Origin: an uncultured Pirellulales bacterium
GTDB taxonomy: Bacteria > Planctomycetota > Phycisphaerae > Sedimentisphaerales > Anaerobacaceae
Reading direction: 5' to 3'
Assembly: GCA_964444135.1 (NCBI GenBank)
Contig: CAYUFX010000009.1
Coordinates: 22,737-86,736, forward strand
DNA length: 64,000 bases
The number at the start of each line of letters is the position of its first letter. Positions within the stretch are counted from its first letter, which is position 1. The notes under the pieces were generated by a model. The model saw only the letters and a list, made by a program, of their open reading frames with translations, ran no database searches and was not told where the DNA came from. This document shows, piece by piece, positions 24,906 to 61,933 of this stretch. A program made the translations under genes and the position numbers.

Positions 24906-25580
24906 ATGGTGATGTCGCAGGACAATAAGACGGATAGCAATGCTAATAAGGGAGTTCGGGACCGATTGCTTGACGCGGCTGAAGAGCTTTTCTGCGAACA
25001 TGGCTTTGAGGGAGCAAGTATTCGTGATATTGCCGCCTCTGCCGACTGCAATATCGCATCGGTCAATTATTATTTTGGCGGGAAAGAAAAATTGTACGAG
25101 GAAGTTTGGCGCCGTCATCTGATTCCGATGCGAGATGCACGCATTGTAAGTGTCAACAAGGTGATGTCTCAAAGTGATGGCAAGCCTCAGTTGGAAGAGC
25201 TGCTCAAGGCCTTCGCAGATGCATTTATTGGGCAAATGGTTGATGACAACAAATCTCGTCAGTTAGGCATACTTATGGCCCGGGAATGGATTGACCGGCG
25301 CTTACCTGCAAATATGTTCTTCGATGACGTTATTAAGCCCACTATGAGCGCTATGCACAAGGCTTTAGTGGAAACTTGCCCAGGCCTGGATGAATCGAAG
25401 GTCCCATTAGTAGTGTTGTCTATCGCTGGGCAGCTTGTACAGGTAGCCCACATAAAAGCTATATTCGAGCAGGGTGACGAGGCGGACTTACCGATGTTCG
25501 ATTTAACTGAGGCGATTGAGCACATTGTCAAATTTTCCGCTGCTGGTATTCGGGCCTATGCAAAGGACAAATCAGAATGA
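24906..25580 (+). CDS. TetR/AcrR family transcriptional regulator
   Basis: 224 aa. RDRLLDAAEELFCEHGFEGASIRDIAASADCNIASVNYYFGGKEKLY is the TetR HTH. It lies upstream of the efflux operon. Confidence 0.85.
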   Translation: MVMSQDNKTDSNANKGVRDRLLDAAEELFCEHGFEGASIRDIAASADCNIASVNYYFGGKEKLYEEVWRRHLIPMRDARIVSVNKVMSQSDGKPQLEELLKAFADAFIGQMVDDNKSRQLGILMAREWIDRRLPANMFFDDVIKPTMSAMHKALVETCPGLDESKVPLVVLSIAGQLVQVAHIKAIFEQGDEADLPMFDLTEAIEHIVKFSAAGIRAYAKDKSE

Positions 25581-25657: not shown

Positions 25658-27268
25658 ATGAAACTATTATGGCAGAAATCGGAAGTCAGAAAACGGAAAT
25701 CAGAAGTCAGAAAACGGAAATCAAAAGTCAGAAGACGGAAATCAAAAGTCGGAGTTTGTCTTCTGTTCTCTTTCCTCTGTCTTCTGTTTTTGGTTGGATG
25801 TGTCAGCAGTGAGCAATTTTATGAAGAGGTCAGCTTCTCGAGAGAGTCTGCGTATCGGCAGTGGATGACCCGCAAAGAGCGCCAAGAGCAGTCTCAACCA
25901 CGTATCAGTGGCGAATTAAGCGCCGAAGATTGCTTAAAGCTGGCGCTGGTTAACAATAAAGTTCTGCAACGTATCACTGAGGAAAAGGAGATTGCCCGCG
26001 GAGAACGGCTAAAATCCTATTCAGCAATATTGCCTACTGTGGGTCTTACGGCGGATTACCTGCGGTTTGATATGGTTTCTTCTATAACTATTCCTGCTAT
26101 TCCTGGACTGGGTCCTGGTGGAAAAATTACGATGGGTGATGTCGACAATTATACGGTAGGGCTGAGGGTTGCTCAGCCGATTTATGCCGGTGGGTCAATA
26201 TGGGCTAAGATACACGCCGCCAGATTGTTCTCTATGCTTACCGACGAGACGGTTCGAGCGGCAGTCCAGGACCTGATTTATATGGCCACTCACTCATATT
26301 ACGATGTATTGCTCAATCAACATCTACTGAAAATTAGCGCTGATGCCGTTCGTTCTTCTCAGGCGCATCTTGATAACGTAAAACAGAGACGGCAGGGTGG
26401 TGTTGCCTCTGATTTTGACGTTCTGCGGGCTGAAGTAGAACTATCGAATTTCCAGGCTGAGCTGATACGGAACAAGAATGCTATCAACGTAGCAAAAGCA
26501 CAGCTACTTAAGGTAATGGGTGTTTCACAGGACAGTGACTTTACGCTTTCGGACGAGCTTGTTTACCTTTCTTCGGAAATGACAGTGGAAGAGGCTGTTG
26601 AAGCTGCTTATCGAAATCGCCCTGATTTATTTAGTCGCGAGTTTGATATAAAATATCAAAAGGAGTTACTCAGAGTTGCAAGGAGCCGATATTGGCCGAT
26701 TATCAGCGGCTTTTATGACAATACCTGGTCGAAGCCCGACCCGCATAACAGGATGGACATTAAGTGGGGGCATCTCTGGCAGGCCGGCCTTATGGCGACA
26801 CTGCCTATATTCGACGGCTTATCTCGCGAAGGTGATGTAATTGTGCAGAAAGCACGCCTTAGACAGGCGCAGATAGGTTTAATTGATGCCGAAGAGACTG
26901 CTTTGTTTGAATTGACTACGGCGCTGCTAAGTATTGAGGATGCTAAGGAGTTTGTTGAATCTCAGTCGTTGAATCTTAACAGGGCAAAAGAGGGACTGCG
27001 GCTTGCGGAAGTAGGCTACAAGCAGGGCACAAATACGCAGGTTGAGATGATAGACGCCCAGGCTGCCTTGACGACGGCGAGGGTAAATCATTACCAAGCT
27101 ATATACTCACACATAATTGCGAAATTGGATTTACAAAAAGCAATGGGAACTCTCACGATGTTTGAAGATGCTGAAGACAAAGGTCAGGCCCAAAATCTCG
27201 AATCGCTCGCTGCAGAAGAAAAGGCTTCAATGGCACTTGATAAAACAGAACGGGGGCAGACAAGATGA
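25658..27268 (+). CDS. TolC-family outer membrane efflux protein (lipobox LVGC)
   Basis: 536 aa with two TolC/OEP repeats. The only in-frame start upstream of the hydrophobic segment is ATG 25658, so the repeat-encoded basic stretch is part of the ORF. Confidence 0.8.
   Translation: MKLLWQKSEVRKRKSEVRKRKSKVRRRKSKVGVCLLFSFLCLLFLVGCVSSEQFYEEVSFSRESAYRQWMTRKERQEQSQPRISGELSAEDCLKLALVNNKVLQRITEEKEIARGERLKSYSAILPTVGLTADYLRFDMVSSITIPAIPGLGPGGKITMGDVDNYTVGLRVAQPIYAGGSIWAKIHAARLFSMLTDETVRAAVQDLIYMATHSYYDVLLNQHLLKISADAVRSSQAHLDNVKQRRQGGVASDFDVLRAEVELSNFQAELIRNKNAINVAKAQLLKVMGVSQDSDFTLSDELVYLSSEMTVEEAVEAAYRNRPDLFSREFDIKYQKELLRVARSRYWPIISGFYDNTWSKPDPHNRMDIKWGHLWQAGLMATLPIFDGLSREGDVIVQKARLRQAQIGLIDAEETALFELTTALLSIEDAKEFVESQSLNLNRAKEGLRLAEVGYKQGTNTQVEMIDAQAALTTARVNHYQAIYSHIIAKLDLQKAMGTLTMFEDAEDKGQAQNLESLAAEEKASMALDKTERGQTR
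25673..25791 (+). repeat. 17 in-register heptamers: 12 purine-rich (CRGAARW) then 5 pyrimidine-rich (TGTYYTC)
   Basis: Read directly: CAGAAAT CGGAAGT CAGAAAA CGGAAAT CAGAAGT CAGAAAA CGGAAAT CAAAAGT CAGAAGA CGGAAAT CAAAAGT CGGAGTT | TGTCTTC TGTTCTC TTTCCTC TGTCTTC TGTTTTT. The 21-nt super-period yields SEVRKRK x3. Confidence 0.9.
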
Positions 27269-28437
27269 AAGTAATCAGAAGAATTTTATTTTGGCTAATA
27301 GCATTAGCAGTGGTGTTTGTTACGTTTTGGTTTGGATTTATACAAAAAACCGCTGAAATCTTGGAGGAGGAAAAGACAGTTCCTGTTGAGGTCGAAGTCG
27401 TAAGCGCGGGCTCTATAGAAGAGACGATAGAGATGACCGGCTGGATAAAAGCAAACCAGATTGTGGACATAGCGTCCAAGGTGGCCGGACGAGTCGAATC
27501 CTTGCGTGTTCTTTCGCATGGGAGTGATTTAGCTGCTCGCCGCGATGCCTCGCAGCGGGCGGTCGAAGAGGGTGTGTCGGTCAAAAAGGGTCAGCAGCTT
27601 GCGATTATCGACCACGATGTTTACTTAGCTCAATTGGTTGCAGCTCAGGCCAGCGTTAGAGCTAAAGAGGTTGAGCTGGCTGATGCCGAGCGTGAAAAGA
27701 AGCGTGTCATTGCCTTATACGAAGGCGGGTCAGCTACAGAGCAGAGCAGGGATAAAGCTGTAACCGCTGCCGAATTGGCGGCGGCAAGTTTGAGCTTAGC
27801 CAAGGCCAATCTGGAGCTTGCTCAAATAAATCTGCGCGAATCCATGATTGTTTCGCCTATTGACGGGATAGTAACGGCCAAACATATTGACGAGGGTAAT
27901 CTGATCAGGTCGGGGGACCAGATTGTTACTATCGCCGATATGAAAACGGTAAGAGTAATTGTTGCCGCTACCGAAAAGTACGGTGCCCAGATTACTGTTG
28001 GGATGCCTGCCAAGATCAAAGTCGATGCGTTTGCCGAAAGAACATTTGATGCGAGTGTGCATTCAATCCATCCGGCTCTCGATGCACAAACCCACACCAT
28101 ACAGGTCGAGATACGTCTTGATAATGAGGAATTGCTGCTGAAGCCGGGTATGTTTGCCAGGGTAACTTTAATTACAAAGCGAAAAGACAATGTAGTGGTT
28201 GTCCCGCGTGATGTTGTTCTTGGAGGCAAGATTGATAAGCATTATGTGTATGTGATTGAAGAGGCAAGCGCCGGCAAAATTGCTCGTAAACATTTTGTTG
28301 AGATTGGAATACAGCAAGCGGACAGGTATGAAATAACCGATGGTTTAAAAGCGGGTGAAACGCTTGTGGTTAACGGGATGAATTATTTAGCCGACGGGAT
28401 GGATGTCGAGGTTGTACGAATAGAGGATATCAAATGA
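27265..28437 (+). CDS. Efflux RND transporter periplasmic adaptor (membrane fusion protein)
   Basis: 390 aa. N-terminal TM, coiled-coil hairpin, lipoyl/beta-barrel pattern. ATGA overlap with the TolC gene. Confidence 0.85.
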   Translation: MKVIRRILFWLIALAVVFVTFWFGFIQKTAEILEEEKTVPVEVEVVSAGSIEETIEMTGWIKANQIVDIASKVAGRVESLRVLSHGSDLAARRDASQRAVEEGVSVKKGQQLAIIDHDVYLAQLVAAQASVRAKEVELADAEREKKRVIALYEGGSATEQSRDKAVTAAELAAASLSLAKANLELAQINLRESMIVSPIDGIVTAKHIDEGNLIRSGDQIVTIADMKTVRVIVAATEKYGAQITVGMPAKIKVDAFAERTFDASVHSIHPALDAQTHTIQVEIRLDNEELLLKPGMFARVTLITKRKDNVVVVPRDVVLGGKIDKHYVYVIEEASAGKIARKHFVEIGIQQADRYEITDGLKAGETLVVNGMNYLADGMDVEVVRIEDIK

Positions 28438-31400
28438 AACTTGCGCAGATTTCCGTAAACAGGCCGGTAACCACCTTGATGATATTTATCGCGATGGTAG
28501 TGTTGGGCCTGGTTTCGCTTTCAATGCTGGGACTAGACTTGATGCCGGACATCGAAATACCGGCTGTTTCAATTTTAACAGCGTATCAGGGGGCCGGGCC
28601 CGAAGAAGTGGAGACTTTGATAACCGAGCCCATGGAGGATACTCTGAGCACTATTTCCGGAGTTGACGAGGTTATTTCGGTGTCCAAAGAGGGAATGTCA
28701 GCGGTGACGTTGAGGTTTGACTGGGGTGAGAAAATAGATGAACATGTAAACGATGTCCGTGAAAAGATTGATTTAATTAGGGATCGATTACCGGAGGAGG
28801 CGGAAAATCCGCTTATTTTCAAGTTTGACCTTTCAATGATACCGATTGCAATTATTGCTTTTACGGCTGAGGACAGCTATCCGGACTTGCAGGATATAAT
28901 TGATGACGCGATAGTTGACCCGCTCAAACGCGTCGAAGGGGTGGCTTCTGTTACAGCCGGTGGCGGTTTGCTGCGACAGATCCGGGTTGATATCGACAGG
29001 GATAAGCTGGCGGCTTTGAATTTATCAGTTACAGAGATGAGCATAGCTCTCGCCGCTCAGAACATTAGTACTCCCGGCGGTAACATAAAGACCGGTTACA
29101 AGGACTATTTATTACGCACACCTGAGGAATTTTCGAGCCCTCAGGAGGTTGCTGAAGTTGTGATTGCCCGCCGTAACGGAATACCTATAAAGTTAAAAGA
29201 CGTTGCCGAGGTAAGGGATTTCTTCAAAGAGCGTACGTATGAGGTGCGCATGAACAGCAAAAAGGCGATGGCAATATTTATTCAAAAGCAGAGCGGCAAA
29301 AATACGGTGGAGGTGGCGCGGGCGGTTAGGCAAAAACTTGACGAGATAAAGAAAAATCTGCCGCCTGATGTTAAGCCCAAGATGGTGATGGATAATTCCG
29401 AGTTTATTTTGGCCTCTGTAGCCACTTTGCGTAACACGGTTTTTTGGGCTGTTTTCTTTGTTTTTATAGTGCTCCTTTTTTTCCTTCGAGACCTGCGGGC
29501 CAGTATTATTGTTGCCGTTGCAATTCCAACATCGTTGATAATTACGTTTCTGTTGATGTACCTGGCTGATTACACGATTAATACCGATTCGTTAGCCAGC
29601 TTAGCTATTGCAGTTGGTCTTGTGGTTGATAATGCCATTGTTGTTGTTGACAACATCAATCGTCATCGTCATAAAGGCCAGCGTCCGAAAGAAGGCGCTG
29701 TTTTCGGCGCAAATGAAGTAGGCGTAGCTGTAGTTGCTTCGACACTGACGACCATTTCGATTTTTGCACCGATTATGTTTGTTGGCGGAATAGCAGCGAT
29801 TATATTTGGACAGTTCGCGGCTATTATTACGATGGCTCTGGTGGCTTCGCTGTTTACCGCCCTTATGCTCGTGCCAATGTTGTGTTCAAGATTTCTAAGG
29901 GTTAATAATCAAAACCCATCGAGGTCTTTATTAGACTTATTTTACCGTTTGGGTGAAAAAGCGTTGACGAAATTAGAGGAGCTTTATGTCAGGTTCCTGA
30001 ACTGGTCGCTGAATAACCGCAAAACAGTTTTTGTTTCCTGTATTGTTTTACTTGTTTGGAGCATTGGGATTGTTGGGTTTATCGGCACTGAATTTTTCCC
30101 CGAGCAGGACCAAAATCGGGTATCGGCGTCTTATGAGCTGCCAATCGGTACTCGTTACGAGCGTACCGGGGTCGTCGCGGAACAGTTGCAGACAATAACG
30201 GAAAATAATGTTCCTGAAAGGCGGGATAGTTTTATTCGTTGGGGTGTTTATGGCCAGGCCGGCGGGGGAAGCATTGCTTCAGAAGAAGAAAGCTATACGG
30301 GTATTCTGTTTATCAGCTTAAAACCTAAAAGGCAGCGTGATGCTTCGCCAAATGACCTGATAAAAAGACTTCGCAAAATCACGGATAAGATACCGGGAGC
30401 AACTGTTCGCTACAGTGCGGAGGATCCCCTTACGGGAATCATGTTTGGCAGCAGTGGACAATTGGCGGTTGAACTTTGCGGGCATGATATGGACGAAGCG
30501 AGTACTTACGCCGAGGCCGTTAGCTCTGTGATAGCTACTGTTGAAGGTGTGGAGGATGTGCAGATCAGCCGAAAAGAGGAAAAACCGGAGGTTAAGGTTG
30601 TCATTGACCGAGAGAAGGCATCTAATTTGGGTCTTGATGTGAGAACGGTCGGTAAACAGGTAGAGACATTTTTTGCCGGCACCACCGCGACGAGATATCG
30701 CGAGGGCGGAGATGAATATGATGTAGAAGTCCGGCTTCAGCCAAAAGACCGGGACAGGATTGAAGATTTACGAGATGTGCCCATAAGTATGCCCGGTGGC
30801 GGTCAGGTTAGCCTCGCGAATATCGCTGGAATCCAGCAGGGCCTGGGCCCAACAAAGATCGAGCGAAAAGACCAGGCCCGCTATATTACGGTTTCCGCAG
30901 AAATCAGCGGCAGAGACCTCGGTTCAGTGGCAAAGGACGTGAGGAAAGCGCTTGATAAGATTCCCGCGCCGCCCGGCTTTAGTTATAAAATTGCCGGTGC
31001 CGAAGAAGAAATGCAAGAGGCATTCAGGCTATTAGTGATTGCTGTGGGTTTAGGGATGGTTTTGGTATATATGGTGATGGCTTCGCAGTTTGAGTCGTTC
31101 CGTGACCCATTTATTATATTTCTTTCAATACCCTTTGGTATTGTCGGCGTAATTATCGCTTTGGCCCTGGCCGGTCAGGCGATGAGTGTTGTCAGCTTTC
31201 TTGCGCTCATCATGCTTGTCGGCATTGTAGTTAATGACGGAATTGTTCTTATTAGTTATCTTAACATACTGCGACGACGTGGACTTGATGTCTATTCGGC
31301 AATAATCGAGGGGGGACGCAGCAGATTACGCCCCGTGGTATGTACCAGCTGTACTACAATACTGGCGCTGGCTCCCCTTGCTTTGTCAAGAGGTGAAGGT

Positions 31401-31532
31401 TCCGAAATTTGGGTGCCCTTTGCCGTAACGATAATTGGTGGGTTGTTTGTCGGGACCGTCATTACGCTGGTTTTGATGCCGACTCTTTACAGTGTGTTTG
31501 AAGGCCTTAAAACTTCAGAGGTAAGAGGATAA
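28434..31532 (+). CDS. RND efflux permease (AcrB/HAE family)
   Basis: 1032 aa. MKLAQISVNRPVTTLMIFIAMVVLG start and 12-TM architecture with two large loops. Confidence 0.9.
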   Translation: MKLAQISVNRPVTTLMIFIAMVVLGLVSLSMLGLDLMPDIEIPAVSILTAYQGAGPEEVETLITEPMEDTLSTISGVDEVISVSKEGMSAVTLRFDWGEKIDEHVNDVREKIDLIRDRLPEEAENPLIFKFDLSMIPIAIIAFTAEDSYPDLQDIIDDAIVDPLKRVEGVASVTAGGGLLRQIRVDIDRDKLAALNLSVTEMSIALAAQNISTPGGNIKTGYKDYLLRTPEEFSSPQEVAEVVIARRNGIPIKLKDVAEVRDFFKERTYEVRMNSKKAMAIFIQKQSGKNTVEVARAVRQKLDEIKKNLPPDVKPKMVMDNSEFILASVATLRNTVFWAVFFVFIVLLFFLRDLRASIIVAVAIPTSLIITFLLMYLADYTINTDSLASLAIAVGLVVDNAIVVVDNINRHRHKGQRPKEGAVFGANEVGVAVVASTLTTISIFAPIMFVGGIAAIIFGQFAAIITMALVASLFTALMLVPMLCSRFLRVNNQNPSRSLLDLFYRLGEKALTKLEELYVRFLNWSLNNRKTVFVSCIVLLVWSIGIVGFIGTEFFPEQDQNRVSASYELPIGTRYERTGVVAEQLQTITENNVPERRDSFIRWGVYGQAGGGSIASEEESYTGILFISLKPKRQRDASPNDLIKRLRKITDKIPGATVRYSAEDPLTGIMFGSSGQLAVELCGHDMDEASTYAEAVSSVIATVEGVEDVQISRKEEKPEVKVVIDREKASNLGLDVRTVGKQVETFFAGTTATRYREGGDEYDVEVRLQPKDRDRIEDLRDVPISMPGGGQVSLANIAGIQQGLGPTKIERKDQARYITVSAEISGRDLGSVAKDVRKALDKIPAPPGFSYKIAGAEEEMQEAFRLLVIAVGLGMVLVYMVMASQFESFRDPFIIFLSIPFGIVGVIIALALAGQAMSVVSFLALIMLVGIVVNDGIVLISYLNILRRRGLDVYSAIIEGGRSRLRPVVCTSCTTILALAPLALSRGEGSEIWVPFAVTIIGGLFVGTVITLVLMPTLYSVFEGLKTSEVRG

Positions 31533-43602: not shown

Positions 43603-43657
43603 AAGTGCCTAAAGTGAGCTAAAGTGAACTAAAGTGATTTCCAAACTTTAGGCACTT
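43603..43657. repeat. 13-bp perfect inverted repeat (AAGTGCCTAAAGT / ACTTTAGGCACTT) enclosing 3 x 10-bp tandem CTAAAGTGAN
   Basis: Read directly from the sequence. It lies in the yajC-secDF spacer inside a larger palindromic region (43585-43708, GGTAATTGGT / ACCAATTACC). Confidence 0.75.
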
Positions 43658-44137: not shown

Positions 44138-44190
44138 TTTCGTTTTCCTTTAATGATTGATTACTTGATTATTTGCAAGATGTTAGATTA

Positions 44191-44225
44191 TCAATAATCA
44201 ATAGTCAATAATCAATAGTCAATTC
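44191..44225 (-). repeat. Heptanucleotide array (minus-strand sense: GAATTGA CTATTGA TTATTGA CTATTGA TTATTGA)
   Basis: 5 x 7 nt. It overlaps the last four codons and stop of tgt. 27 nt are identical to the reverse complement of 56204-56230. Confidence 0.85.
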
Positions 44226-48165: not shown

Positions 48166-48730
48166 TAACGCTATGTATCGCGTATATCGTATTGCGTGCT
48201 ACATCACGCACAACCAAGTGGGTATTATAATGTGACAACGAGGATTTGCAACAGTTTTTTTATCCGGCTTGGATTGGCCCCGAGGCCGGTAGCAGAGCCT
48301 GTCCCCGAATGTAGGGGCAACCCCGCGTGGTTGCCCTGATTCCCTTCTAAATTCGACATTGATCAGGTCAATGATACTGAGCCGAATAGTCCATGAAAAG
48401 GCGATGTTTGGAGCTTTAGTATGCCGCCTTGGGCGGATTTCGCCCGGAGCGAATCTTTGACTTCTATATTGATTATTACGGAGGACAGAGGAAAGAATAC
48501 GGAAGATGCAAGGAATATCGAATGCCGAACAAGTTACGAAAATAAATTAGGGGTGGTTTTTATATTTTGTGAAGTTTATTCTTGACGTGTAAAGACAAAT
48601 CGGTTTTATTAATGGGCACGGGTGGTGGAGACAAAATCTGTTGGTCTGTAACAGTCTATAAATAAAGGGTTTGTGTATTTTAAGGATGGTCGAAAGGAAA
48701 TATCTTAATTTTCTTGGAAAGGATTGAACG

Positions 48731-49507: not shown

Positions 49508-49529
49508 TTCCCAAGATTCGATTGCCCAT

Positions 49530-49557
49530 TGAAAATTGGAAATTGGAAATCGAAAAA
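49530..49557 (+). repeat. Heptanucleotide array TGAAAAT TGGAAAT TGGAAAT CGAAAAA
   Basis: Read directly from the sequence, between the OmpA-like gene stop and the ndk start. Confidence 0.7.
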
Positions 49558-53507: not shown

Positions 53508-54848
53508 ATGACTGACAGACCCCGCAAGGCGGGAACCCACAGAAACGGATTGAGCCGGCGTCAGTTCTTAAAGAGAGCAGCTGGCACATCTGTGGGGGCA
53601 GTGGGATTTCCATACATTGTTTCTTCGTCAGTTTTCGGTAAGGCCGACAGTATAGCGCCGAGCGAACGAATTACTATGGGTTGTATTGGTGTTGGCTGGC
53701 AGGGCGGCAGCAATATGAACTCATTTCTTCGCGAAAAAGACTGTCAAATCGTCGCCGTCTGTGACGTTGACAAAAACCACCTGCAGAGCGCGGCCAATCG
53801 TGTTAATGAGAAATACAAAAACAAAGACTGCGCTGCGTACGCGGATTATCGTGAGCTGTTAGCGCGCGATGATATCGACTCAGTATCGCTTGGTCTGCCC
53901 GACCATTGGCATGCGATTCCAGCTACAGAAGCTGCGAGGTCGGGCAAGGACATATTCGGTGAAAAGCCCCTGTCGCATAATCTAAGGGAAGGCCGAGCTA
54001 TGTGCGATGCGGTCGAGCGTTACGGCCGGATATGGCAGACCGGAAGCTGGCAGCGTTCGGAGGCCAATTTCCGCTTTGCCTGCGAACTGGTCCGTAATGG
54101 CCGCATCGGCAGAGTGCATACGGTCGAAGTAGGGCTGCCTTCGGGACATACCGACTTCGGTGAGACCAAGGGGCAGGAAGGGATTTGTCCGCCGCCCATA
54201 GAGCTCGACTATAACTTCTGGCTCGGGCCTGCGCTATACGAGCCTTACTGTCCGGCGCGTGTGCACAAGAACTGGCGGTGGGTCCTCGACCACGGAGGCG
54301 GACAGTTGATGGACTGGGTCGGTCACCACGTCGATATCGCCCACTGGGGTCTGGGCATGGATTACGGCGGCCCGTACGAGATAGAAGGCTCCGGGGAATA
54401 TCCGAAAGACGGATTATGGAACAGCCCGACAAAGTATCGGCTGACGGCGAAATACCCCGACGAGGTTACGATGACTATCGCCGGCGGGTACGACGACATT
54501 CGCGGCGGGACAAAGTGGATAGGCAAAGATGGGTGGGTCTGGGTTACTCGCGGCGATATAGATGCACAGCCCAAGAAGCTGCTCGAAGAGAAGTTCGGAC
54601 CGGATGAGATACACTTGTTTCGTTCGCCCGGACATTGGCGCAACTTCCTCGACTGTGTGAAGAGCCGTGAGACCACGCTAACGCCTTGTGAGGTTGCACA
54701 TCGCTCAGCGACGCCGGGCCACTTAGGGCAGATTGCTATGCGGCTGGGGCGCAAGATACGCTTTAACCCCAAGACCGAAGATATACTCGATGACCCGACC
54801 GCAACGAGCTTGCTCGGAGCAGCAATGCGCAGCCCGTGGCACCTGTGA
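53508..54848 (+). CDS. Gfo/Idh/MocA-family oxidoreductase with Tat signal
   Basis: 446 aa. SRRQFLKRAAG twin-arginine motif, GCIGVGWQG Rossmann start, EKPL motif, C-terminal MRSPWHL. Confidence 0.85.
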   Translation: MTDRPRKAGTHRNGLSRRQFLKRAAGTSVGAVGFPYIVSSSVFGKADSIAPSERITMGCIGVGWQGGSNMNSFLREKDCQIVAVCDVDKNHLQSAANRVNEKYKNKDCAAYADYRELLARDDIDSVSLGLPDHWHAIPATEAARSGKDIFGEKPLSHNLREGRAMCDAVERYGRIWQTGSWQRSEANFRFACELVRNGRIGRVHTVEVGLPSGHTDFGETKGQEGICPPPIELDYNFWLGPALYEPYCPARVHKNWRWVLDHGGGQLMDWVGHHVDIAHWGLGMDYGGPYEIEGSGEYPKDGLWNSPTKYRLTAKYPDEVTMTIAGGYDDIRGGTKWIGKDGWVWVTRGDIDAQPKKLLEEKFGPDEIHLFRSPGHWRNFLDCVKSRETTLTPCEVAHRSATPGHLGQIAMRLGRKIRFNPKTEDILDDPTATSLLGAAMRSPWHL

Positions 54849-54850
54849 AA

Positions 54851-54885
54851 TTGAATATTGACTATTGGAAATTGATTATCATTTG
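54851..54885 (+). repeat. Heptanucleotide array ATTGAAT ATTGACT ATTGGAA ATTGATT ATCATTT
   Basis: It starts 3 nt after the stop codon of 53508-54848. Confidence 0.85.
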
Positions 54886-56205: not shown

Positions 56206-56240
56206 ATTGACTATTGATTATTGACTATTGGTTATTTTTT
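56206..56240 (+). repeat. Heptanucleotide array ATTGACT ATTGATT ATTGACT ATTGGTT ATTTTTT
   Basis: It starts 2 nt after the stop codon of 54912-56204. Confidence 0.85.
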
Positions 56241-59282: not shown

Positions 59283-60728
59283 ATGAAAATCAAGTGCACA
59301 AGTCAGAAGACAGAAGTCAGAAGACAGAAGTCAGGAGACAGAAGCAATCGCTGCGGTAGAATTGTTGGATATGTCCTCTGTCCTCTGCTATCTGTTCTCT
59401 GTGCTGTTTGCCTCGGGGCAGCAGAACAGCAGGACGATGCCATCGGGATAGTCCTCGACATTCTTAAGAGCGGCGACCAGGAGATGCAGGCCGTGGCCAT
59501 CGCGATGGTAAAGGAAATGCCGGGGACAGAAATAACAAAAGCTTTGGCCAAAGAGCTGCCGAACCTTTCGGCTACCAGTCAGGTGCAACTGTTGTCCGCT
59601 CTGGGCGACCGCGGGGACGCCGCTGCCTTGCCGGCGGTTATCACTGCTGTGAAGGCCAAGGACGAATCCGTTCGGATTGCGGCTCTCAAGGCAATGGGGC
59701 AATTAGGTGATGCGTCTAGTGTTGGCTTATTGGCACAAACGGCGGCGGCGACCGGAGGCGCCGAACAAAAAGCCGCTCGCGAGAGTTTGTATCGTTTGCG
59801 CGGCCCGAAGGTCGATGAAGCAGTCTTAGCAGCGATTCCAAAGGCAGTGCCAAAAACGAAGGTGGAATTGATTAAGAGCACAGGTGAGCGGAATATATCA
59901 GCAGGTGTAAGCACTTTATTAAAAACCGCAACGGATTCGGACCGTAAAGTTCGAGTCGAATCGTTCAAGGTCTTAAAGGTCATTGCCGGCCAGGAGGATT
60001 TGCCGGCGCTGGTCGAGCTTTTGCTGAATTTGCGAAGCTCATCCGAGGCCAATGAGGCCCAGAAAATGGTAGCCGCTGTTGCCCATAAAATCGAGGACAA
60101 GGACCGTCAGGCCGAGGCGGTGTTGGCTGTGCTGCCTTCGGTTAAAGATGTCAAAAAACAATGCTCTCTGCTGAGCGTATTAGGCAAAATAGGCGACAGC
60201 AGCGCCCTGCCCCCGCTTGTCGAGGCGCTGAACAGCGACAATATTGAGAGCAGGGGTGCCGCCATCCGTGCGCTGGCAGAGTGGCCTACTTCCGAGCCGG
60301 CGATTGAGATGCTCAAGGCAGCGCAGAACTCTCAGGACAGAGCACACCGGATACTGGCACTGCGCGGTTCTATCCGCCTGCTTGGACTTGATACTAAGAG
60401 AACGCCCGAAGAAACGATTGAAATGTATAAGAAAGCAATGACTCTGGCGCCGGATGCGATTGAAAAAAGGAGGGTGCTTTCGGGGCTCGCCAATACCAAA
60501 TCTCTCGGCGCACTGCAAATGTCAGCAGATTATCTCCAGGACAAGACTTTATTCAGAGAAGCGGAATTTGCGGTGGTTAAAATCGCTGAGGGCATCTACG
60601 AAAACTTTCCTCAACAAACCAGGGATGTATTAGAGAAGGTTTTGCAAGCCTCGAAGAATGACCCGCTGCGTCAGCAGGCGCAGGAAGTGATAAATCGAAT
60701 TGAAGGATTGAAGTTAAAAGTGAACTAA
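59283..60728 (+). CDS. HEAT-repeat protein with repeat-encoded N-terminal signal-like segment
   Basis: 481 aa with multiple LxxLGDxxALPAL-type HEAT/PBS-lyase repeats. The N-terminus is derived from the heptamer arrays. Confidence 0.65.
   Translation: MKIKCTSQKTEVRRQKSGDRSNRCGRIVGYVLCPLLSVLCAVCLGAAEQQDDAIGIVLDILKSGDQEMQAVAIAMVKEMPGTEITKALAKELPNLSATSQVQLLSALGDRGDAAALPAVITAVKAKDESVRIAALKAMGQLGDASSVGLLAQTAAATGGAEQKAARESLYRLRGPKVDEAVLAAIPKAVPKTKVELIKSTGERNISAGVSTLLKTATDSDRKVRVESFKVLKVIAGQEDLPALVELLLNLRSSSEANEAQKMVAAVAHKIEDKDRQAEAVLAVLPSVKDVKKQCSLLSVLGKIGDSSALPPLVEALNSDNIESRGAAIRALAEWPTSEPAIEMLKAAQNSQDRAHRILALRGSIRLLGLDTKRTPEETIEMYKKAMTLAPDAIEKRRVLSGLANTKSLGALQMSADYLQDKTLFREAEFAVVKIAEGIYENFPQQTRDVLEKVLQASKNDPLRQQAQEVINRIEGLKLKVN
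59297..59415 (+). repeat. In-register heptamers: 7 purine-rich (CAGAAGW) + 28-nt spacer (4 x 7) + 6 pyrimidine-rich (TCCTCTG-type)
   Basis: CACAAGT CAGAAGA CAGAAGT CAGAAGA CAGAAGT CAGGAGA CAGAAGC | 28 nt | TCCTCTG TCCTCTG CTATCTG TTCTCTG TGCTGTT TGCCTCG. Confidence 0.9.
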
Positions 60729-60826
60729 AGTGCCTAAAGTTTTAAGTGCATAAAGTAAAAAAATAACTTTAGCTCACTTGTGGTACTTTCTAATTTTGGA
60801 GAGCGAATTAAACAGGAGAGAAAGTT

Positions 60827-61933
60827 ATGGTTATACAGGTTAGAAGTAAGACGTCAGATATCAGAGGTCGGAGGTCAGAAGTCAGAAGTCAGCTCTGTCC
60901 TCTGCTCTCTGTCCTCTGTGCTTTGTTGTCTGTGCTGCTGTCCTCTTGTGCGGGGCCATTAGCGGTTGACCCGGTTCTTGAGGCGAGTATGGCGATTGAG
61001 AGTGCCGACGCCGCTATGGGCGACTGGGAAGGAAGCTGGATATTGGATGATGAAAGCGATTCGGGACCATTGGCAGCACAGGTGATAGCTTTGGGTAAAG
61101 GTGAGTATAGAGCTAATTTTCTTGAAAAGTTTGATACTCGCGAGGAACCTATAGCAGTACTTGATGGCGAGCGCGACGGTGAAGTGGTGCGTTTTGAAGG
61201 ACAAGTCGAACTAAGCAACGGCGGCACCCTTGATGTCCAGGCAACTATTGAAGGCGGTAAGCTCAAGGGCAGTTTCAAGGGAGACGAAGCCGGCAGCGTC
61301 ACATTGAACAAGGCAACTCGGGTTTCACCCACATTGGGGGAAAAGCCCCCGGCCGGTGCGATTGTCCTTTTCAACGGCAAAAACTTCAAGCAATGGAAAC
61401 ATACAAACAAGAAACCAGACGCTGATTCTGTGAAATGGGCACTTGGGAAGGGCGGTTCGATGGAAGTCGTAAAGGGTACCGGTTCAATTGTTACCAAAAA
61501 GAAATTTACAGATTTCAAGCTGCACGTGGAATTTCGCACGCCCTTTATGCCCGATGCGCGAGGCCAGGGGCGCGGTAACAGCGGGGTGTATCTGCAGGAA
61601 CGATATGAGGTGCAGGTACTTGACAGCTACGGCCTCGAAGGTGAAGACAACGAATGCGGCGGAATCTATAAGGTCGGGGCTCCTCTCGTAAATATGTGTG
61701 CGCCGCCGACGCAGTGGCAGACTTACGATATTACTTTTTACGCCCCCGGTGCCGACAGGCCAAACGCCCAGGTGACAGTTGTCCACAACGGCGTGACGAT
61801 ACATGACAACATAAGTCTTCCAAAGCCGACCGGCGGTGCACTGGATAGTGACGTGACCAAACCCGGAGGTATATATCTGCAGGACCACGGCAATCCTGTG
61901 CAATACCGTAACATTTGGCTAATTGAATTGTAA
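60827..61933 (+). CDS. DUF1080 (3-keto-disaccharide hydrolase family) lipoprotein
   Basis: 368 aa. Strong SD AGGAGA. Lipobox LLSSC encoded by the pyrimidine array. DFKLHVEFRTP...GNSGVYLQERYEVQVLDSYG...NECGGIY. Confidence 0.8.
   Translation: MVIQVRSKTSDIRGRRSEVRSQLCPLLSVLCALLSVLLSSCAGPLAVDPVLEASMAIESADAAMGDWEGSWILDDESDSGPLAAQVIALGKGEYRANFLEKFDTREEPIAVLDGERDGEVVRFEGQVELSNGGTLDVQATIEGGKLKGSFKGDEAGSVTLNKATRVSPTLGEKPPAGAIVLFNGKNFKQWKHTNKKPDADSVKWALGKGGSMEVVKGTGSIVTKKKFTDFKLHVEFRTPFMPDARGQGRGNSGVYLQERYEVQVLDSYGLEGEDNECGGIYKVGAPLVNMCAPPTQWQTYDITFYAPGADRPNAQVTVVHNGVTIHDNISLPKPTGGALDSDVTKPGGIYLQDHGNPVQYRNIWLIEL
60834..60952 (+). repeat. In-register heptamers: 8 purine-rich (NAGARGT) directly abutting ~8 pyrimidine-rich (GTCCTCT-type)
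   Basis: TACAGGT TAGAAGT AAGACGT CAGATAT CAGAGGT CGGAGGT CAGAAGT CAGAAGT | CAGCTCT GTCCTCT GCTCTCT GTCCTCT GTGCTTT GTTGTCT GTGCTGC TGTCCTC TTGTGCG. Confidence 0.9.

Follow-up and report, generated by a model that had tools for sequence, protein, structure and literature searches.

What is a tandem array of 7-nucleotide (nt) units doing inside the 5' end of a gene for an exported protein? The question arises in a 64,000-nt stretch of contig CAYUFX010000009.1 (GenBank assembly GCA_964444135.1, positions 22,737 to 86,736 of the forward strand) from an uncultured Pirellulales bacterium, hereafter the window, in which a gene of the TolC/OEP family opens with purine-rich and then pyrimidine-rich heptamers. 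All coordinates below are window positions. We consider it likely that a degenerate heptanucleotide simple-repeat hairpin has been taken over here as signal-peptide coding sequence, and that it is translated and has replaced the ancestral signal peptide.

Heptamer arrays at the start of three genes

The TolC gene belongs to a TetR-OEP-MFP-RND cluster, and its open reading frame (ORF; 25658-27268) begins MKLLWQKSEVRKRKSEVRKRKSKVRRRKSKVGVCLLFSFLCLLFLVGC. The purine-rich arm consists of the heptamers CAGAAAT, CGGAAGT, CAGAAAA, CGGAAAT, CAGAAGT, CAGAAAA, CGGAAAT, CAAAAGT, CAGAAGA, CGGAAAT, CAAAAGT, and CGGAGTT, and the pyrimidine-rich arm of TGTCTTC, TGTTCTC, TTTCCTC, TGTCTTC, and TGTTTTT. A sequence-only reading of this DNA had described 12 purine and 5 pyrimidine heptamers in one register at 25673-25791; inspection of the sequence and Tandem Repeats Finder (TRF) both confirm this. 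Its unit consensus, CRGAARW/TGTYYTC, stands in part: strict fits number 9/12 and 3/5, the remaining units are off by 1 to 2 positions, and the opening unit, CAGAAAT, represents ancestral W-Q-K codons that are found too in orthologues lacking an array. By TRF, the purine arm has a period of 21 nt (3.6 copies, 94% identity), with 71% at period 14, and the pyrimidine array a period of 7 nt. As had also been noted, no in-frame ATG, GTG, or TTG occurs between 25661 and 25756; similarly, neither a second hydrophobic segment nor an alternative in-frame start was found in the ORF before the lipobox cysteine. An alternative-frame ORF of 47 amino acids (aa) at 25669-25812 (+), MAEIGSQKTEIRSQK...SLSSVLFPLSSVFGWMCQQ, spans both arms; it probably arises because the arms lack stop codons and is not a gene.

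Two further genes share this architecture, as the same reading had it: one for a HEAT-repeat protein and one for a DUF1080 lipoprotein. The array sets in 14 to 15 nt past the ATG in all three genes (25658, 59283, and 60827). TRF gives the DUF1080 array 79% at period 7. A census of the window with a two-unit purine pattern, allowing up to 3 mismatches, returned 27 matches against 4.5 expected, a number that 0 of 100 shuffles reached; the two-unit pyrimidine pattern at the same threshold returned 19 against 3.5 expected. All array matches in the window are confined to the three loci and lie on the + strand. A candidate fourth element at 48475-48506 was rejected as a two-unit non-coding stretch within chance expectation.

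Table 1. Array-bearing genes, their repeat arms, and neighboring genes in the window
Feature	Coordinates	Strand	Description	Evidence
TetR-family regulator gene	24906..25580	+	First gene of the efflux cluster	ORF; Pfam TetR_N/CecR_C on identical gene in L001
OEP/TolC-family gene	25658..27268	+	Outer-membrane lipoprotein, predicted repeat-encoded signal peptide	PF02321 OEP, E 1.6e-57
TolC purine-rich arm	25673..25756	+	12 heptamers in 21-nt higher-order units; encodes basic n-region QKSEVRKRKSEVRKRKSKVRRRKSKVGV	
TolC A-free pyrimidine-rich arm	25757..25791	+	5 heptamers; encodes h-region CLLFSFLCLLF	
TolC lipobox	25790..25801	+	LVGC, residues 45-48; ancestral, aligned with L[AV]GC of conventional orthologues	
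Membrane-fusion protein (MFP) and RND transporter genes	27265..31532	+	Same efflux cluster	ORFs; Pfam on identical L001 genes
HEAT-repeat protein gene	59283..60728	+	Repeat-encoded N terminus MKIKCTSQKTEVRRQKSGDRS...YVLCPLLSVLCAVCLGAAEQ	
HEAT purine arm	59297..59345	+	Alternating CAGAAGA/CAGAAGT, 14-nt period, 3.2 copies, 96%	TRF
HEAT pyrimidine arm	59370..59410	+	Preceded by a 24-nt spacer (59346-59369)	
3-Keto-disaccharide hydrolase (DUF1080) gene	60827..61933	+	Lipoprotein, predicted repeat-encoded signal peptide	PF06439, E 2.8e-44
DUF1080 purine arm	60841..60892	+	Encodes RSKTSDIRGRRSEVRSQ	
DUF1080 pyrimidine arm	60893..60946	+	Encodes LCPLLSVLCALLSVLLSS; runs into ancestral lipobox LSSC (60938-60949)	

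Orthologues show what the arrays replaced

Neither arm can hold a sense stop codon, so an ORF that runs through the arrays proves nothing by itself, and the orthologues decide. We compared 120 TolC orthologues, the named ones being Sedimentisphaerales (Planctomycetota, class Phycisphaerae). Orthologues at about 70 to 75% identity have an ordinary lipoprotein signal peptide (e.g., MKLLWQKCIGIIVAGMVTLQLAGC continuing with VS), laid out as MKLLWQK-h-region-LAGC. In the closest orthologues the layout is MKLLWQK-(SEVRRRK)n-VCLLFSVLCPLF-LAGC, with the start and the lipobox kept and the cysteine aligned. Indeed, orthologues with and without arrays agree in the start codon, in the region before it, and in the seven opening codons (MKLLWQK). 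The lipobox cysteine is residue 34, 41, 48, or 55 in 22 of the 24 array-type cluster representatives, and at the DNA level the TolC genes differ by 21- or 42-nt blocks, with both flanks homologous to the conventional gene. Taking TolC and DUF1080 orthologues together, array lengths differ by blocks of 21, 42, or 63 nt. One TolC orthologue (P0025; L130, about 1440-1580) has undergone a deletion of about 90 nt that took the original start and the purine arm; its new start overlaps the TetR stop codon, and former intergenic sequence is fused to the pyrimidine-encoded h-region (MKKQLLSILLEVRICLLFSVLCPLFLAGC).

The DUF1080 orthologues tell a similar story. Conventional N termini read MVQEVTKKNKEYRFLVNGCKIIICVLAFVL-SVLLSSC and array-type N termini MVIQVRSK...(SEVRSQK)n...LCPLFSVLCCLL-SVLLSSC, with an AGGAG ribosome-binding motif and the ATG invariant in both. 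The cysteine falls at 41, 48, or 62 in array forms and at 27 or 34 in short-array forms (P0202 and P0134/P0155); the latter were read by eye, the automated tally having classed them as conventional. A conventional DUF1080 orthologue already has TTGTCTGTCCTG...TCTTGT at the site of the pyrimidine arm. For the HEAT gene, one lineage has no array (L254), one has the purine arm only (L255), and both arms are present in the window; all three retain CAVCL[AG]AAEQQDD, which forms the end of the h-region plus the cleavage region.

The orthologue alignments in the three genes place the arrays at the signal-peptide position, where they replaced an older signal peptide and must be read in frame. The comparison therefore upholds what had been proposed from the sequence: array-less TolC orthologues share the MKLLWQK start and the aligned lipobox cysteine, so the repeats between them have to be translated; the purine array, lying inside the ORF, stands as the basic n-region and the A-free array as the h-region. 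The ordinary signal peptide of orthologues sits in place of the arrays, not downstream of them. Judged on these alignments, the arrays would be translated as signal peptide in all three exported-protein genes.

Other short elements also occupy these 5' ends. In some TolC orthologues, for instance at L129 179-199 and 221-241 (P0011), the 21-nt purine blocks alternate with an insert of equal length, TCCACAGGATGYCTTACGGCA, encoding SPQDALRQ, and an LPQGILW insert is present in the DUF1080 pyrimidine arm of P0126, P0128, P0145, and P0157; the latter would be compatible with the reverse complement of TCCACAGGATGYCTTACGGCA if two substitutions are allowed. A REP-like (repetitive extragenic palindrome-like) sequence, GGTGGGCTAAAGCCCACC(CTAC), is translated in HEAT orthologue N termini (...LPHQLRLGGLKPTL...; L254, about 530-590, and L255, about 1800-1870), and the window HEAT gene has its spacer and pyrimidine arm where these orthologues carry the palindrome. 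The HEAT gene 5' end seems to collect different hairpin elements.

Signal-peptide features and reading frame

Our signal-peptide calls rest on rules of thumb together with the orthologue alignment. The uninterrupted repeat-encoded h-regions are VCLLFSFLCLLFLV (mean Kyte-Doolittle [KD] hydrophobicity, 2.87) and LCPLLSVLCALLSVLL (mean KD, 2.27), for a customary length of about 7 to 22 residues. The lipobox pattern [LVI][ASTVI][GAS]C matches LVGC at residues 45-48 of TolC and LSSC at residues 38-41 of DUF1080, which align with LAGC and LLSSC of the conventional orthologues. The HEAT protein has no lipobox; it is probably cleaved at a signal peptidase (SPase) I-type site between CLGA and AEQ. Features of this kind suggest that the array-bearing proteins are exported and, where a lipobox is present, lipidated.

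The arrays are not neutral with respect to frame. The net charge of the frame in use is +13 for TolC, +3 for HEAT, and +4 for DUF1080. Across the TolC purine arm, the charge is +13 in the used frame but +1 and +3 in the remaining frames, and mean KD hydrophobicity of the pyrimidine arm is 2.87 in the used frame against 2.11 and 1.53. The TolC array has thus been tuned to one frame by point substitutions; the HEAT and DUF1080 arrays show the same tendency more weakly. The idea that the element is frame-agnostic describes the arithmetic of perfect arrays, 7 and 3 sharing no factor, and does not hold for the real TolC array. In a perfect complement, (ACTTCTG)n, every frame contains TGA; the coding arms carry TGTCYTC instead. 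The proposal that TGA occurs in every reverse frame is true of ideal (CAGAAGT)n, whereas the actual purine arm of TolC has a reverse frame free of stops; orientation specificity, with only purine-first arrays readable, is accordingly secure for ideal arrays at least.

The same heptamers in other genomes

An exact search for (CAGAAGT)3 in one genome per GTDB species returned at least 120 stretches in at least 10 phyla. Hosts among the matches listed include Acidobacteriota, Cyanobacteria (Okeania, Moorena, Dapis, and Crocosphaera), Nitrospirota, Verrucomicrobiota, Planctomycetota, Bacteroidota, Desulfobacterota, Kiritimatiellia, and others. Again among the matches listed, 90 of 126 (CAGAAGT)n arrays lie outside any long ORF, and 34 of 126 are followed within 150 nt by a complementary (ACTTCTG)n-type array, forming a heptamer hairpin with 78 to 95% arm complementarity. 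Only 3 to 4 of these listed arrays are signal-peptide n-regions (L031, L043, and L104, with L088 by eye). A metagenome scan for A-free (CTCTGTC)n gave a comparable picture: 67 of 130 arrays fall outside long ORFs and about 4 to 5 are credible signal peptides (L168, L213, L236, and L210). Signal peptides thus make up about 3 to 4% of arrays in the two scans, the GTDB share being among the matches listed. Exact (CAGAAGT)3 also occurs on 43 viral contigs (IMG/VR; L259-L301).

The proteins behind array-encoded N termini elsewhere are ApbE (two independent cases), BamA/Omp85, a periplasmic binding protein, and Alph_Pro_TM, all families that need export. In-frame (CAGAAGT)n is also present inside ordinary enzymes or long ORFs (L066, L081, L038, L093, and two sites in L086), and these cases show that the arrays can be translated insertions outside signal peptides. 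The hosts are a BioD-like enzyme, an aminotransferase, an acyltransferase linker, and an ORF of more than 1300 aa; L086 carries whole purine/complement hairpins in frame. In about 93 kb of DNA from the lineage, every array copy is at the N terminus of an exported-protein gene in sense orientation.

Heptamers are favored generally in these genomes. Of 510 tandem repeats that TRF reported in 850 kb of fetched GTDB loci (L007-L126), 301 have period 7 and another 57 period 14, and 179 of the 301 period-7 arrays have units other than the CAGAAGT family; with so many different units, the genomes are strongly biased to heptamer repeats as such. The notion of a dedicated signal-peptide system is not supported by these numbers, since copies elsewhere are mostly non-coding and the arrays belong to a general heptanucleotide repeat class. 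A bacterial simple repeat that is common and mostly non-coding has here been put to an unusual use.

Protein-level searches added little. When 1.84 billion representatives were searched exhaustively by HMMER with the DUF1080 cassette (60827-60961) as query, there were 2 matches, both orthologues, the 45-aa low-complexity query being too weak; a word-indexed search with an idealized cassette peptide yielded 11 short ORFs, all spurious, from Moorena and genomes like it, of no use for family counts. In Moorena spp. (L044 651-850, L101, L106, L122, and L027), (CAGAAGT)n reaches 18 units, with ...TATAG on the 5' side and about 65 conserved nt on the 3' side (CAAACTCTTGCGCTTAYTTAGGTTTGAGACTTTTGTCATGTCC...CCTGGCGACTGCTATA). 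Array and flanks together look like a distinct repeated element or small RNA.

Hairpin potential, origin, and length changes

The window arms are partly complementary (71 to 81% over 16 to 34 nt; HEAT arms, 73 to 81%). Folding energies of the segments range from -38 to -46 kcal/mol (z = -1.7 to -2.7), and base shuffles within each arm give z values of -1.9 (TolC), -2.5 (HEAT), and -3.7 (DUF1080) on the + strand and -3.8 for HEAT on the - strand. The arms therefore pair better than their composition predicts. Some purine units have a T-to-A change (GAAGACA) that matches TGTCTTC of the A-free arm. The TolC element is at once the least complementary and the most frame-tuned of the three, which fits a hairpin decaying under selection at the protein level.

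Ancestral junction sequences were already unit-like: CAGAAAT at the 5' and CTCTG at the 3' junction in TolC, and CAGGAAGT and TCTGTCCTG in DUF1080. This suggests microhomology-guided insertion or nucleation. Unit signatures are specific to each gene and are retained by its orthologues, a pattern that speaks against continuing exchange between genes. HEAT orthologues lack a pyrimidine arm; the one in the window gene finds its best match anywhere in the DUF1080 arm at 60893 (28/31), and an unrelated locus reaches 27/31; the 28/31 match is the only hint that one gene may have copied from another.

We propose the following sequence of events. A purine arm and a partly complementary A-free arm would have come from the widespread, mostly non-coding class of heptamer repeats and hairpins, possibly seeded at junction microhomology. 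In TolC, the pair lies between the MKLLWQK start and the L[AV]GC lipobox, where it has replaced the ancestral hydrophobic core. The stop-free purine arm, read in sense, would supply a basic n-region rich in Lys, Arg, Ser, and Glu, and the pyrimidine arm, incapable of a stop, an h-region of Leu, Phe, Cys, Ser, and Val; both arms plus the ancestral lipobox would make a working Sec/SPase II signal peptide. Arrays would then grow and shrink, presumably by replication slippage, with only multiples of 21 nt surviving to give 7-aa steps; point substitutions have tuned the array to the frame in use.

Several points weigh against this account. The cysteine of a lipoprotein is expected about 15 to 35 residues from the N terminus (the positional rule of PROSITE PS51257). 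In TolC it is residue 48 and in DUF1080 residue 41, outside that range and late because the n-region is long; in conventional orthologues it is at about 24 and about 37, respectively. The TolC n-region is itself atypical, with about 26 residues and a charge of +13. Array state is patchy on neighbor-joining (NJ) trees of the mature domains, with at least 9 and at least 16 changes and a conventional root at low resolution. Arrays thus seem to have been gained, lost, or recombined often, and recombination or repeated gain, instead of plain slippage, could lie behind the patchiness. Given this patchy state, and although the trees are poorly resolved, we rejected one ancient insertion per gene as an oversimplification. 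Coverage amounts to 64 kb for this genome and about 93 kb for the lineage, so non-coding copies in the lineage are possible. Finally, the retained complementarity of the arms might reflect a structural or regulatory role rather than being a leftover.

Alternative explanations

That last point leads to a regulatory mRNA or DNA hairpin, in which the arms are kept for pairing and a stem about 11 to 15 nt past the AUG tunes initiation, stability, or the coupling to targeting. The peptide would then need only to be export-compatible, and such a role can hold alongside takeover of the repeat as signal-peptide coding sequence. The folding energies and + strand shuffle scores, the constant distance of the arrays from the ATG, the GAAGACA/TGTCTTC matches, and the clear hairpins formed by non-coding relatives all speak for it. 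However, single arms stand in signal peptides that are predicted to work (pyrimidine only in P0025; purine only in L255, L031, L043, and L088), complementarity is lowest in TolC, where coding tuning is highest, and no Rfam family matches in the window at gathering thresholds. We give this reading a rather small chance. The possibility that the start is mis-called and the arrays are 5' untranslated region (UTR), with the ORF extending through them only because the arms are stop-free, draws on the composition of the two arms, which leaves every sense frame open, and on L158, which has arrays upstream of a normal signal peptide. Against it, no signal peptide-like stretch or in-frame start lies between the arrays and the lipobox cysteine, array-less orthologues share the start codon, upstream region, and first seven codons, all length variants keep frame, and the used frame is specifically tuned. 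We rejected this explanation on the orthologue evidence and regard it as very improbable.

Two further explanations concern how the arrays change or move. A phase-variable contingency locus of the opa type, with slippage by a single heptamer or 14-mer switching exported or surface proteins on and off, would suit a unit of 7 that is not a multiple of 3, a leader-peptide position like that of the opa CTCTT repeats (PMC3960869), and copy numbers that differ between close relatives; the HEAT 14-nt repeat is the best candidate, and some orthologues have runs of at least 4 perfect units (L133). Yet all observed length variants are in frame, mostly in 21-nt steps, and no off alleles were seen in consensus assemblies and protein databases, which under-represent them. 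Further, the TolC array is 71% periodic at 7/14 nt against 94% at 21 nt, which sets the slippage register in frame; its 5' region is identical in nine contigs from several samples, and the TolC gene calls listed on 10 contigs with the same MFP protein are all 536 aa. We consider such switching quite improbable. A dedicated portable cassette, mobile between the 5' ends of genes for exported proteins and providing an export signal in any frame, would account for the exclusively exported, sense placement in the window and the lineage, for both-arm versions heading exported proteins in other phyla (L104, Nitrospinota; L168, L213, and L236), for the likeness of the HEAT pyrimidine arm to its DUF1080 neighbor, and for microhomology at both junctions. 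Against it, unbiased samples are mostly non-coding, in-frame arrays also occur inside cytoplasmic enzymes (L066, L081, and L038), unit signatures are gene specific and conserved, an unrelated locus matches the HEAT arm nearly as well, and no associated mobility gene was seen; moreover, the arrays replaced existing signal peptides and did not create export. We think it improbable. A bolder version has a slightly better, though still slim, chance: a self-propagating module that spreads between such 5' ends by microhomology-mediated template switching or gene conversion, delivering an n-region and h-region together with an expression-tuning mRNA stem about 15 nt past the AUG, a portable signal-peptide-and-regulator cassette reused across phyla.

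Relation to known repeats

The sequence-only reading had called the arrangement undescribed. We found no published description of heptamer-encoded signal peptides, and no papers came up when the literature was searched for the repeat sequence or the peptide it encodes; a 2025 tree-of-life survey of short tandem repeats (STRs) does not mention heptamers. Close precedents nevertheless exist. In the leader-peptide region of Neisseria opa genes, CTCTT pentamers form a near-perfect tract in which slippage by a single unit switches the gene at about 1e-3 per generation (PMC3960869). Like the window arrays, this is a pyrimidine-rich repeat whose unit length is not divisible by 3, located in signal-peptide coding sequence, read as its hydrophobic part, and variable in copy number. 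The window arrays differ in being degenerate, in having an extra purine arm for the n-region, and in varying in frame (21-nt steps).

Cyanobacterial short tandemly repeated repetitive (STRR) sequences are heptamer repeats. According to the summary of Mrazek 2007 in PMC4679880, heptanucleotide units are the most abundant long simple sequence repeats (LSSRs) in prokaryotes, and the dominance of period 7 in our fetched loci fits the abundance so summarized. The same source describes TAACTGA heptamer repeats in Beggiatoaceae, Cyanobacteria, and Bacteroidetes and places heptamer repeats within ORFs at protein termini (PMC4679880). Heptanucleotide LSSRs resemble the arrays studied here in their tandem 7-nt units, sporadic distribution across phyla, mostly intergenic location, frequent proximity to start codons, and copy-number polymorphism between close relatives; they differ in unit family (CAGAAGT/TGTCCTC in the window), in lacking inverted paired arms, and in not encoding a whole n-region and h-region. 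A signal-peptide role has been described for none of the known heptamer families.

Intergenic heptamer arrays are present in the window as well. A second, unrelated family, (ATTGAYT/ATTGRAA)n, occurs at 49528-49556, 54846-54879, 56206-56236, and 44157-44223, in short spacers between same-strand genes, always in sense direction, and ending a few to about 60 nt upstream of the next start codon. In this they resemble the TAACTGA repeats upstream of start codons (MacGregor 2015). Arrays of 9 to 10 nt, CTAAAGTGA(A/G) in 2.6 to 2.9 copies, lie in intergenic spacers at 43609-43637 and 60717-60740, the latter falling between the HEAT stop and the DUF1080 start.

Rickettsia palindromic elements (RPE), which Ogata and colleagues reportedly described in 2000 as inserted in-frame in protein-coding genes, are likewise translated inverted-repeat elements tolerated at permissive sites. 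RPE have a defined consensus of about 100 to 150 bp; by contrast, the window arrays vary in length and have no consensus beyond the unit. Arm length, spacer (0 to 24 nt), and unit variants differ among the three genes and between orthologues; the arrays are not RPE-type elements and resemble them only in how they work. Among eukaryotic signal peptides, CNDP1 has a length-polymorphic poly-Leu repeat. The APOB signal-peptide insertion/deletion is another repeat-encoded length polymorphism (PMC4201729). Both share with the window arrays a simple repeat in the signal peptide and in-frame length polymorphism of the hydrophobic core, but their units are multiples of three bases and change a few residues, not a whole n-region and h-region. 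Signal peptides are said to tolerate near-random sequence, as Kaiser and colleagues reportedly found in 1987 with yeast invertase. This would explain how a repeat-encoded basic-then-hydrophobic peptide can act as an export signal, although those were experimental random inserts and not a natural repeat element.

Significance

The three genes would constitute a clear natural case of functional coding sequence drawn from simple-sequence DNA: the entire n-region and h-region of a signal peptide, where a conventional one stood before. The arrangement recurs on unrelated exported proteins (TolC/OEP, DUF1080, HEAT, ApbE, BamA, and a periplasmic binding protein) in several phyla. If translated as predicted, the TolC array shows how far Sec/lipoprotein signal peptides can stretch, with an n-region of about 26 residues, a charge of +13, and the cysteine at 48, and the orthologues offer a natural allelic series in 7-residue steps for studying how n-region length and charge affect export. 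Such N termini break the positional rules of lipoprotein predictors. Stop-free arrays can also mislead gene callers, which may call spurious ORFs over non-coding arrays or dismiss real starts as low complexity. Lastly, the (CAGAAGT)3 copies on viral contigs could bear on how this heptamer family came to be present in many phyla.

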